A stretch of 64,000 nucleotides of DNA from Escherichia coli (GTDB lineage: Bacteria; Pseudomonadota; Gammaproteobacteria; Enterobacterales; Enterobacteriaceae): the NCBI RefSeq assembly GCF_003334785.1, contig NZ_QOWV01000006.1; one strand, written 5' to 3'. Shown piece after piece: positions 47,037 through 48,717 of the stretch. Positions within the stretch are counted from its first letter, which is position 1; each line of letters opens with the position of its first letter. Below the pieces are notes generated by a model. The model saw only the letters and a list, made by a program, of their open reading frames with translations, had not been told where the DNA came from and ran no database searches. The position numbers and the translations under genes were made by a program.

Positions 47037-47308
47037 AAAAGGTCCATAAAATAATTAATACCAAAGGGGTAGGTATTATTAGTGATGATAAAATTTCACC
47101 AAAAGTGAACGCTTGTGTTATTACAATAATAAGAATGCGCTGATGGCAAATATTCAGGGATGAAAAACTGCTCTGAAAAGAGTAACGCGCTTTACTATCC
47201 CTGACAATCACCAACAACATCGAACAAGATAATAAATTCCTGGTTTAATATCCGACAAGTGAAAACATGCACCCGGACGGGCAGCATGTCGCTCCACAAG
47301 TGCAGAGC

Positions 47309-47434
47309 TTACTTGTGTTGTACCGAAGCACTCTGTTCAGGTGGCTGATAGTTGTCAATGTGACTCGCCACGCCAAGAAGAATGACTGAAACGACAAGAA
47401 CGATCCAACCTGTTAATTCAATAAGACGATTCAT
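47309..47434 (-). CDS. blr: 41-aa small membrane protein Blr
   Basis: Internal start within ORF 47309-47509 gives MNRLIELTGWIVLVVSVILLGVASHIDNYQPPEQSASVQHK (41 aa, single TM). Confidence 0.8.
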   Translation of the reverse strand: MNRLIELTGWIVLVVSVILLGVASHIDNYQPPEQSASVQHK

Positions 47435-47676
47435 TACAGCCCACATCTCTCTTGATTGATCCATTAACTTCAGGGGGTAAATGTTACTTAGCAATAATAG
47501 CTCCAGCAAGATTTTTACTGAGGTTTTTGCGATATTTAGCTTTTGTCGTTGGAAAATTCGCTATTTTTTTGACTTAAGTTAAACAACATCCCTTATTGCT
47601 GGCAGGTTATTAAACTGTTGAGCGTGGGTAAAGGATAGTGTCAAATAGCCATCATACTTCAATGAGAGGCAATGAC

Positions 47677-48717
47677 ATGAGCGACAACATCCGTGTTGGG
47701 TTGATTGGGTATGGTTATGCGAGCAAAACCTTCCATGCGCCCCTGATTGCGGGCACGCCCGGGCTGGAACTGGCGGTAATCTCCAGCAGTGATGAAACAA
47801 AAGTAAAAGCCGACTGGCCAACGGTTACGGTTGTCTCTGAGCCGAAGCATCTGTTTAACGATCCCAACATAGACCTGATTGTCATTCCTACACCCAACGA
47901 TACCCATTTACCGTTAGCCAAAGCGGCGCTTGAGGCGGGTAAACATGTGGTCGTTGATAAACCCTTTACCGTGACACTGTCACAAGCGCGAGAGCTGGAT
48001 GCGCTGGCAAAAAGCCTGGGGCGTGTGCTGTCTGTATTCCATAACCGTCGCTGGGATAGCGATTTCTTGACGCTAAAAGGTTTACTCGCGGAAGGCGTGC
48101 TGGGTGAAGTTGCTTACTTTGAGTCTCATTTTGACCGCTTCCGTCCGCAGGTGCGCGATCGTTGGCGTGAACAGGGCGGCCCAGGCAGCGGTATCTGGTA
48201 CGATTTAGCACCACATCTTCTTGATCAGGCCATTACGCTTTTTGGTTTACCGGTCAGCATGACGGTAGATTTGGCACAGTTACGGCCCGGAGCGCAGTCG
48301 ACCGATTATTTCCACGCCATCTTGTCCTATCCACAGCGGCGAGTCATTTTACACGGTACCATGCTGGCAGCCGCTGAGTCAGCACGGTATATCGTGCATG
48401 GATCCCGAGGCAGTTATGTGAAATATGGCCTCGATCCACAGGAAGAACGTCTGAAAAATGGCGAGCGTCTACCGCAGGAAGACTGGGGCTACGATATGCG
48501 TGATGGCGTACTTACCCGCGTGGAAGGTGAGGAACGTGTCGAAGAAACGCTGTTGACGGTGCCTGGGAATTATCCGGCTTACTATGCGGCTATTCGTGAT
48601 GCGTTAAATGGCGATGGTGAAAATCCGGTTCCGGCAAGCCAGGCAATCCAGGTAATGGAGTTGATTGAGCTGGGCATCGAATCCGCCAAACATCGCGCGA
48701 CTTTGTGCCTTGCATGA
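47677..48717 (+). CDS. ydgJ: Gfo/Idh/MocA-family oxidoreductase YdgJ
   Basis: ORF 47638-48717; internal start gives 346 aa MSDNIRVGLIGYGYASK with Rossmann motif. Confidence 0.88.
   Translation: MSDNIRVGLIGYGYASKTFHAPLIAGTPGLELAVISSSDETKVKADWPTVTVVSEPKHLFNDPNIDLIVIPTPNDTHLPLAKAALEAGKHVVVDKPFTVTLSQARELDALAKSLGRVLSVFHNRRWDSDFLTLKGLLAEGVLGEVAYFESHFDRFRPQVRDRWREQGGPGSGIWYDLAPHLLDQAITLFGLPVSMTVDLAQLRPGAQSTDYFHAILSYPQRRVILHGTMLAAAESARYIVHGSRGSYVKYGLDPQEERLKNGERLPQEDWGYDMRDGVLTRVEGEERVEETLLTVPGNYPAYYAAIRDALNGDGENPVPASQAIQVMELIELGIESAKHRATLCLA

Follow-up and report, generated by a model that had tools for sequence, protein, structure and literature searches.

We propose that the 75 bases immediately upstream of the annotated blr start codon comprise a promoter, an untranslated leader and four codons, that Blr has no N-terminal extension of the length suggested by its open reading frame, and that the ancestral start of the gene lies four codons upstream of the annotated one; we put the probability of this reading at about 0.9. 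The window referred to throughout is the whole stretch of Escherichia coli DNA that was analysed (64,000 nt of contig NZ_QOWV01000006.1), and coordinates are window positions unless another replicon is named. Codons are numbered relative to the annotated start codon, which is codon 0 (annotated Met1), with negative numbers for the codons upstream of it.

The blr locus is a familiar one and unremarkable. Of 5426 complete E. coli genomes, 5425 carry the ydgK-cnu-blr cluster, from which ydgJ is divergent, and the copy in the window is 100% identical to that of K-12-type strains, in which the product is annotated as "division septum protein Blr", with a length of 41 aa. The MG1655 counterpart is b4409 (1704551-1704676, 41 aa). 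Membership of the Blr family is indicated by the core NR(L/I)(I/V)EL..GW...HIDNYQPPE and by the position of the gene between divergent ydgJ and cnu; domain matches for the neighbouring genes are to GFO_IDH_MocA and HHA. Searches with the 66-aa translation of the full open reading frame gave a score of 90 bits for NCBIfam NF033231 (cut-off 40), covering residues 27-66, and E = 5e-25 for Pfam PF24673, covering residues 26-66; the extension residues matched neither model and contained nothing recognisable. Blr is reportedly a divisome-associated membrane protein of E. coli K-12 (Wong et al., 2000; Karimova et al., 2012), and is said to have been described as a protein of 41 residues. The coding sequence and the open frame upstream of it are placed as follows:

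47309..47434, minus strand: blr coding sequence as annotated, 41 codons plus a TAA stop codon, with the ATG at 47434-47432
47435..47509, minus strand: the 25-codon "extension" of the first-pass annotation, read here as promoter, leader and four real codons
47561..47563, minus strand: nearest in-frame stop codon upstream of blr, a TAG at codon -43

The first-pass annotation had noted that the blr frame stays open for 25 codons upstream of the annotated ATG, and had suggested that translation from an upstream ATG would give a 66-aa isoform with an extra hydrophobic N-terminus. The reading frame and its translation were given exactly: a 66-codon ORF spans 47309..47509 on the minus strand, and its product is MLELLLLSNIYPLKLMDQSREMWAV followed by MNRLIELTGWIVLVVSVILLGVASHIDNYQPPEQSASVQHK (the 41-aa Blr). 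The frame is in fact open for 42 codons, not just 25. Moreover, the first codon of the 66-codon ORF is TTG (47509-47507) rather than ATG, and the only in-frame ATGs within the extension are those at codon -10 (47464-47462) and codon -4 (47446-47444). An open frame of 25 codons is of a length expected by chance (P about 0.17). In first-order Markov simulations that preserved the dinucleotide content of the intergenic spacer, which is 37% GC, 17% of trials gave an open frame of at least 25 codons upstream of an ATG, and 5% gave one of at least 42 codons.

The published transcription start site (TSS) for blr lies inside this open frame. Kim et al. (2012; PMC3415461, supplementary file 2) list one blr TSS, at NC_000913.2 1702536 (+), with 57 reads and a 39 nt 5' UTR, and the promoter string that they give for it ends ...TAACATTTACCCCC (also quoted as ending ...GCTAAGTAACATTTACCCCC). 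When this position is transferred to the window, the TTG at 47509 is 36 nt upstream of the TSS. The TTG is thus absent from the mRNA, and a 66-aa Blr would not be made from the blr transcript. We note that the blr TSS comes from a single high-throughput study of limited conditions, and that an additional upstream promoter may be active under other conditions. The accessible parts of the Cappable-seq and ROSE supplements contain no match to the blr TSS, and the text consulted gave no TSS for the Klebsiella pneumoniae orthologue KPN_01960.

Sequence conservation upstream of the TSS is consistent with a promoter. When the 170 nt that precede blr are aligned across 26 species, three conserved blocks with fixed spacing stand out, namely CTTGC(C/T)G, GTAACATT 17 nt further on, and CTGT(G/A)TTTATGGATAAAT(C/T)A. 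The arrangement of CTTGC(C/T)G and GTAACATT with fixed spacing is found in 24 of the 26 aligned species, the spacer being free of indels across genera, and the GTAACATT block is common to Escherichia, Salmonella, Citrobacter, Enterobacter, Lelliottia and Leclercia. On this basis we infer a putative sigma-70-type promoter with a 17 nt spacer between its hexamers:

47504..47509, minus strand: -35-like hexamer TTGCTG, a predicted promoter element that begins with the TTG taken as the start codon in the 66-codon ORF
47481..47486, minus strand: -10-like hexamer TAACAT, a predicted promoter element within a conserved block, ending 7 nt before the mapped TSS
47473, minus strand: blr TSS (position of Kim et al., 2012, transferred to the window)

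Both hexamers are weak when compared to the sigma-70 consensus (3/6 matches for TTGCTG and 4/6 for TAACAT), and they fall below the threshold of a generic promoter scan. We considered an alternative promoter, with GTAACA as the -35 hexamer and TATGGA or GATAAA as the -10 hexamer, and rejected it because the hexamers and spacing are poor and the mapped TSS is upstream of that block. By eye, the conserved blocks contain no convincing match to sigma-32, sigma-E or CpxR motifs, and an Rfam search of 47100-47750 returned nothing significant.

We made three further observations in the region around the promoter. First, a block, TTTAACTTAAGTCAAA, with the palindrome ACTTAAGT (47568-47583, minus strand), is conserved from Escherichia to Citrobacter; it is a putative regulator site, located some 100 nt before the blr TSS in the spacer that separates the promoters of blr and of divergent ydgJ. 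Second, Kim et al. (2012; PMC3415461) list a second TSS that they assign to ydgJ, at NC_000913.2 1702603 (-), with 12 reads and a 271 nt leader. This position corresponds to about 47406 (plus strand) in the window, within codons 9-10 of blr, and the transcript would run antisense over the start and the promoter of blr. Third, in some E. coli assemblies (proteins P0012, P0014 and P0017) the DNA on the 5' side of the -10 hexamer (preceding "...SNIYPLKL" in the translation) is exchanged for an unrelated sequence translating as MFAGKKSAQIREILISESAWEEMTCLFAPS. This change suggests an insertion, perhaps the end of an IS element, that displaces the -35 region of blr.

If the extension were translated, its codons should be conserved as codons. 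We fetched 80 blr loci, one per GTDB species, and anchored 79 of them, all from Enterobacteriaceae, on the NR(I/L)(I/V)EL...HIDNY core. The nearest upstream in-frame stop codon in these 79 species is found anywhere from codon -5 to codon -48. The frame is not conserved even within Escherichia: a TAG at codon -5 closes it in E. albertii, E. whittamii and three other non-K-12 Escherichia lineages, one of which is titled E. coli (L001-L005). Stops at codon -7 or -8 are found in Pseudescherichia, Leclercia and others. The TTTATGGATAAAT block is kept although it is out of frame with blr at five loci (L006, L051, L063, L071 and L076), and although it is followed by in-frame stops at four more (L028, L036, L053 and L054); it thus appears to be conserved as DNA or RNA, not as codons. 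Entropies at codon positions 1/2/3 are 0.38/0.21/1.26 for core codons 1-33, the pattern being dominated by the third position, and are flat (0.34/0.36/0.33) for codons -10 to -5 in the Escherichia/Salmonella/Citrobacter subset; no codon periodicity by this measure was detected upstream of codon -4. Variation among E. coli strains includes a C-run at the TSS that is one C longer in strain DS26-1, which shifts the 66-codon ORF into the +1 frame, and a TGG to TGA change at codon -3 in E. coli O157:H7 C1-057 and strain ES5; the exact TGA allele is carried by 400 of 5397 E. coli genomes (7%).

A 66-aa Blr with an extra hydrophobic N-terminus, translated from the TTG at 47509, would account for the open frame of K-12-type E. 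coli and for the 66-aa or longer forms given by some automated annotations (P0001-P0004). A few database entries do carry the 66-aa form (such as P0001), but these are gene-caller output, not evidence of translation. Against such a protein, the TTG is inside the putative -35 hexamer, upstream of the mapped TSS, and the best anti-Shine-Dalgarno (SD) duplex in the 20 nt upstream of it is +0.7 kcal/mol, which is to say that there is no SD. Nor would read-through in the direction of blr be expected, as the gene upstream, ydgJ, is divergent. Together with the interruption of the frame in other Escherichia and in E. coli strains, and with the frequency of frames this long in the simulations, this makes the 66-aa isoform extremely improbable. 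The checks that had been suggested for the distant start, namely SD analysis and conservation of the upstream codons, both went against it: there is no SD, and the codons show scattered stops, frameshifting indels and no third-position periodicity. Judged by the refuting criteria of the first-pass annotation, the 66-aa isoform is refuted. The broader idea, that translation begins before the annotated ATG, does hold, but for no more than the final four codons of the extension.

These four codons behave differently from the sequence preceding them:

47435..47446, minus strand: four codons ATG TGG GCT GTA (MWAV), the proposed ancestral N-terminus of Blr, with the ATG at 47446-47444; translation from here would give a 45-aa Blr

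Codon -4 is ATG in 78 of the 79 species. By contrast, codon 0 is ATG in only 29; it is an Ile codon (ATT/ATC/ATA) in 34, a Phe codon (TTC/TTT) in 13, TTG in two and a Val codon (GTC) in one. There are no indels between codons -4 and 0 in any species. At codons -1 and 0 position 2 is always T and the third position varies freely, codon -1 encoding Val, Ile or Leu with position entropies of 1.08/0/1.63; this is how a hydrophobic residue within a coding sequence behaves, and not a start codon. In about 20 species codon 0 is not ATG, and the open frame that precedes it offers no canonical start codon other than the -4 ATG. The -4 ATG is also on the mRNA, with the TSS 27 nt upstream of it. When 1.84 billion proteins were searched with a profile, more distant Blr sequences were recovered in Klebsiella and Superficieibacter; every one begins M-x-x-(V/S)-F, and the NCBI annotation starts at this Met; the Klebsiella locus reads ATG GAA AAC GTT TTT AAC CGT at the start. 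Given this near-universal ATG at codon -4, against 29 species with ATG at codon 0, the comparative evidence places the ancestral start of Blr at codon -4, giving a protein of 45 aa in E. coli numbering.

Between the TSS and the -4 ATG there is a short leader that contains a further in-frame ATG:

47447..47473, minus strand: blr 5' untranslated leader, 27 nt to the -4 ATG and 39 nt to the annotated ATG

Within it, the codon -10 ATG forms part of AUGGAU (47464-47459), which resembles an SD, and a purine run, AAGAGAG, occupies 47453-47447. Kosakonia, Phytobacter, Pseudescherichia and two Enterobacter-like species have strong SDs (AGGGAG or AAGGAG, -7.4 to -8.7 kcal/mol) 9-11 nt before the -4 ATG; these are more than 20 nt from codon 0, which in Kosakonia, Phytobacter and Pseudescherichia is itself often Phe or Ile. 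Citrobacter, Salmonella and E. coli have, in the same place, a T(A/T)(A/T)GGAT block that is conserved whatever the reading frame. We considered RNA structure as a reason for conservation of the leader block, and rejected it, since the predicted fold from the TSS to +84 is no better than that of shuffled sequences (z = -0.94).

The codon -10 ATG could itself be a start codon, giving a 51-aa isoform in K-12 (MDQSREMWAV followed by Blr), as NCBI annotates Salmonella and many Citrobacter. The mRNA carries this ATG 9 nt in from its 5' end, and the ATG is in frame and open in K-12, Salmonella and many Citrobacter, with an equivalent at codon -12 in many Enterobacter; 51 or 53 aa is the annotated length of Blr in Salmonella, Citrobacter and Enterobacter. 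We consider this isoform improbable. The ATG has no SD, and its leader would be only 9 nt. In several Citrobacter and Enterobacter it is replaced by AAG, such that the block reads TAAGGAT, a better SD. It is followed by in-frame stops in five other Escherichia lineages, in Leclercia and at L028, it is out of frame at the same five loci that keep the TTTATGGATAAAT block out of frame, and it is absent from Kosakonia, Phytobacter, Kluyvera and Klebsiella. The lack of periodicity in codons -10 to -5 likewise argues against their translation. The codon -10 ATG would thus be part of a degenerate, long-spaced SD-like element rather than a start codon, with the GGA block presumably pairing with the ribosome on behalf of the -4 ATG.

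An ancestral start at codon -4 would bring order to the annotation of the family, in which Blr is given several lengths:

E. coli: 41 aa
Superficieibacter, and K. pneumoniae KPN_01960: 45 aa
Klebsiella (the K. oxytoca group and a K. pneumoniae entry): 49 aa
Salmonella and Citrobacter: 51 aa
Enterobacter and Lelliottia: 53 aa

One conserved ATG would account for all of these. The difference between the E. coli and K. pneumoniae genes is also evident in the data of Kim et al. (2012; PMC3415461), in which KPN_01960 is 138 nt and b4409 is 126 nt. In a widespread Enterobacter sequence (P0075, locus L082), a 41-aa Blr is called from an ATT (position 301 of the locus), with an ATG four codons upstream (position 289); the counterpart of the "-12 ATG" in this strain is AAG. 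The ATT start looks like an annotation artefact that results from fitting a family model of 41 positions. As a separate observation at the other end of the protein, C-terminal extensions of 6-11 residues (e.g. ...KPHALLKNSDI) are found in Leclercia (L036, L053 and L054) and in Kluyvera (L070, L074 and L075), in contrast to the 45-aa form of other genera.

Which of the two nested start codons is used in E. coli K-12 is a separate question from where the ancestral start lies. Several lineages have lost the upstream start and kept the gene. E. fergusonii has AAG at codon -4 and TAA at codon -3 (L093, positions 139-153), and its leader has diverged just upstream of the annotated ATG, while the -35 and -10 blocks are kept; Citrobacter amalonaticus S646 has AAG at codon -4 and ATG at codon 0; and the 41-codon blr is intact in the two E. 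coli loci with TGA at codon -3 that we examined. These losses in E. fergusonii, in C. amalonaticus S646 and in 7% of E. coli genomes argue that the annotated ATG works, and the pattern is most simply explained if this ATG initiates in Escherichia. The choice of the short form in the first-pass annotation was therefore reasonable, since E. fergusonii and 7% of E. coli genomes can use only the annotated ATG. In K-12, the annotated AUG is preceded by the AAGAGAG purine run 10-11 nt upstream (-4.7 kcal/mol), whereas the -4 AUG has only the weak SD-like AUGGAU, 12-13 nt away (-3.1 kcal/mol). We are confident that K-12 ribosomes use the annotated AUG.

It is possible that K-12 uses only the annotated ATG, the -4 ATG being an evolutionary relic that no longer initiates. 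This would fit with the retention of an intact 41-codon blr by E. fergusonii and the 400 E. coli genomes in which the -4 frame is lost, with the AAG of C. amalonaticus S646, with the purine run in K-12, and with the description of the gene as encoding a 41-residue protein (Wong et al., 2000). Against this reading, 93% of E. coli genomes keep the -4 ATG and the MWAV codons, as do all five of the other Escherichia lineages that were sampled, the sole difference being synonymous (GCT/GCA). Variation in the three codons that follow this ATG in Salmonella and Citrobacter is synonymous (TCG/TCA/TCT, the only kind seen at codon -3) or conservative (Val/Ile), which is what translated sequence should show. 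We regard exclusive use of the 41-aa start as a serious contender that falls somewhat short of an even chance. We consider the odds to be balanced as to whether K-12 ribosomes also initiate appreciably at the -4 AUG, and it is just as finely poised whether K-12 Blr is wholly or partly a protein of 45 residues (fMet-Trp-Ala-Val-Met-Asn...). The main texts of Meydan et al. (2019) and Weaver et al. (2019) do not mention blr; there is no blr entry in the accessible parts of the supplements of Nakahigashi et al. (2016), and blr is not mentioned in the Salmonella proteoform paper (PMC11005335), in TRAINSPOTTER or in the Mg-starvation small-protein paper. We also note that the -4 ATG, followed by TGG, forms an AUGUG motif (47442-47446, minus strand); initiation at AUGUG is reported to be possible in two frames (PMC9841429).

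We propose the following model for the region. Reading along the minus strand, RNA polymerase would recognise TTGCTG (47509-47504) and TAACAT (47486-47481), and transcription would begin at 47473. A 27 nt leader with a degenerate, long-spaced SD-like AUGGAU would then lead into AUG UGG GCU GUA. In K-12-type E. coli the frame is free of stops by accident, such that an ORF finder runs back to the TTG of the -35 element. On the branch leading to Escherichia, Salmonella and Citrobacter, a hydrophobic residue at position 5 of the protein (Ile or Phe elsewhere) would have been replaced by Met, creating a second in-frame AUG. This second AUG, which gives the 41-aa protein and is used by the E. coli annotation, would be sufficient alone in lineages that have lost the first.

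If the 45-aa reading is true, the 41-aa start is a derived second start of Escherichia, Salmonella and Citrobacter, and the 41-position models of Pfam and NCBIfam are four residues short; this shortfall would already be driving the ATT call in Enterobacter; elsewhere the forms called are of 51 or 53 aa. It is probable that the 12 nt just before the annotated ATG are coding sequence, and work that relies on tagging, deleting or expressing Blr (two-hybrid fusions, RseP-substrate assays, SPA tags) should take into account that the native N-terminus may hold four more residues. For biology at large the case carries little weight, but blr is a clean example of an ORF that has been extended into its own promoter.

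The gene in the window is the same gene as blr (b4409) of E. coli K-12, with 100% identity and the same ydgJ/cnu context, and differs only in how its start is interpreted: comparative data suggest an ancestral N-terminus four residues longer than the 41-aa model of Pfam and NCBIfam. Closely spaced pairs of in-frame start codons have been described by retapamulin profiling (Meydan et al., 2019) and in Salmonella (PMC11005335), and the two AUGs of blr, 12 nt apart, could likewise give 45- and 41-aa proteoforms; those pairs were mapped by profiling, whereas for blr it is conservation that suggests dual use. The closest parallels for the start itself are the Blr proteins of Klebsiella (49 aa, MENVFNRIVEL... 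or MTTVFTRIVEL...) and Superficieibacter (45 aa), in which the start is placed, relative to the NR(I/L)(I/V)EL...HIDNYQPP core, as is the -4 ATG of the window. These proteins have Phe as residue 5 and hence lack a second in-frame AUG, whereas the Met found at this position in E. coli gives two nested candidate starts.
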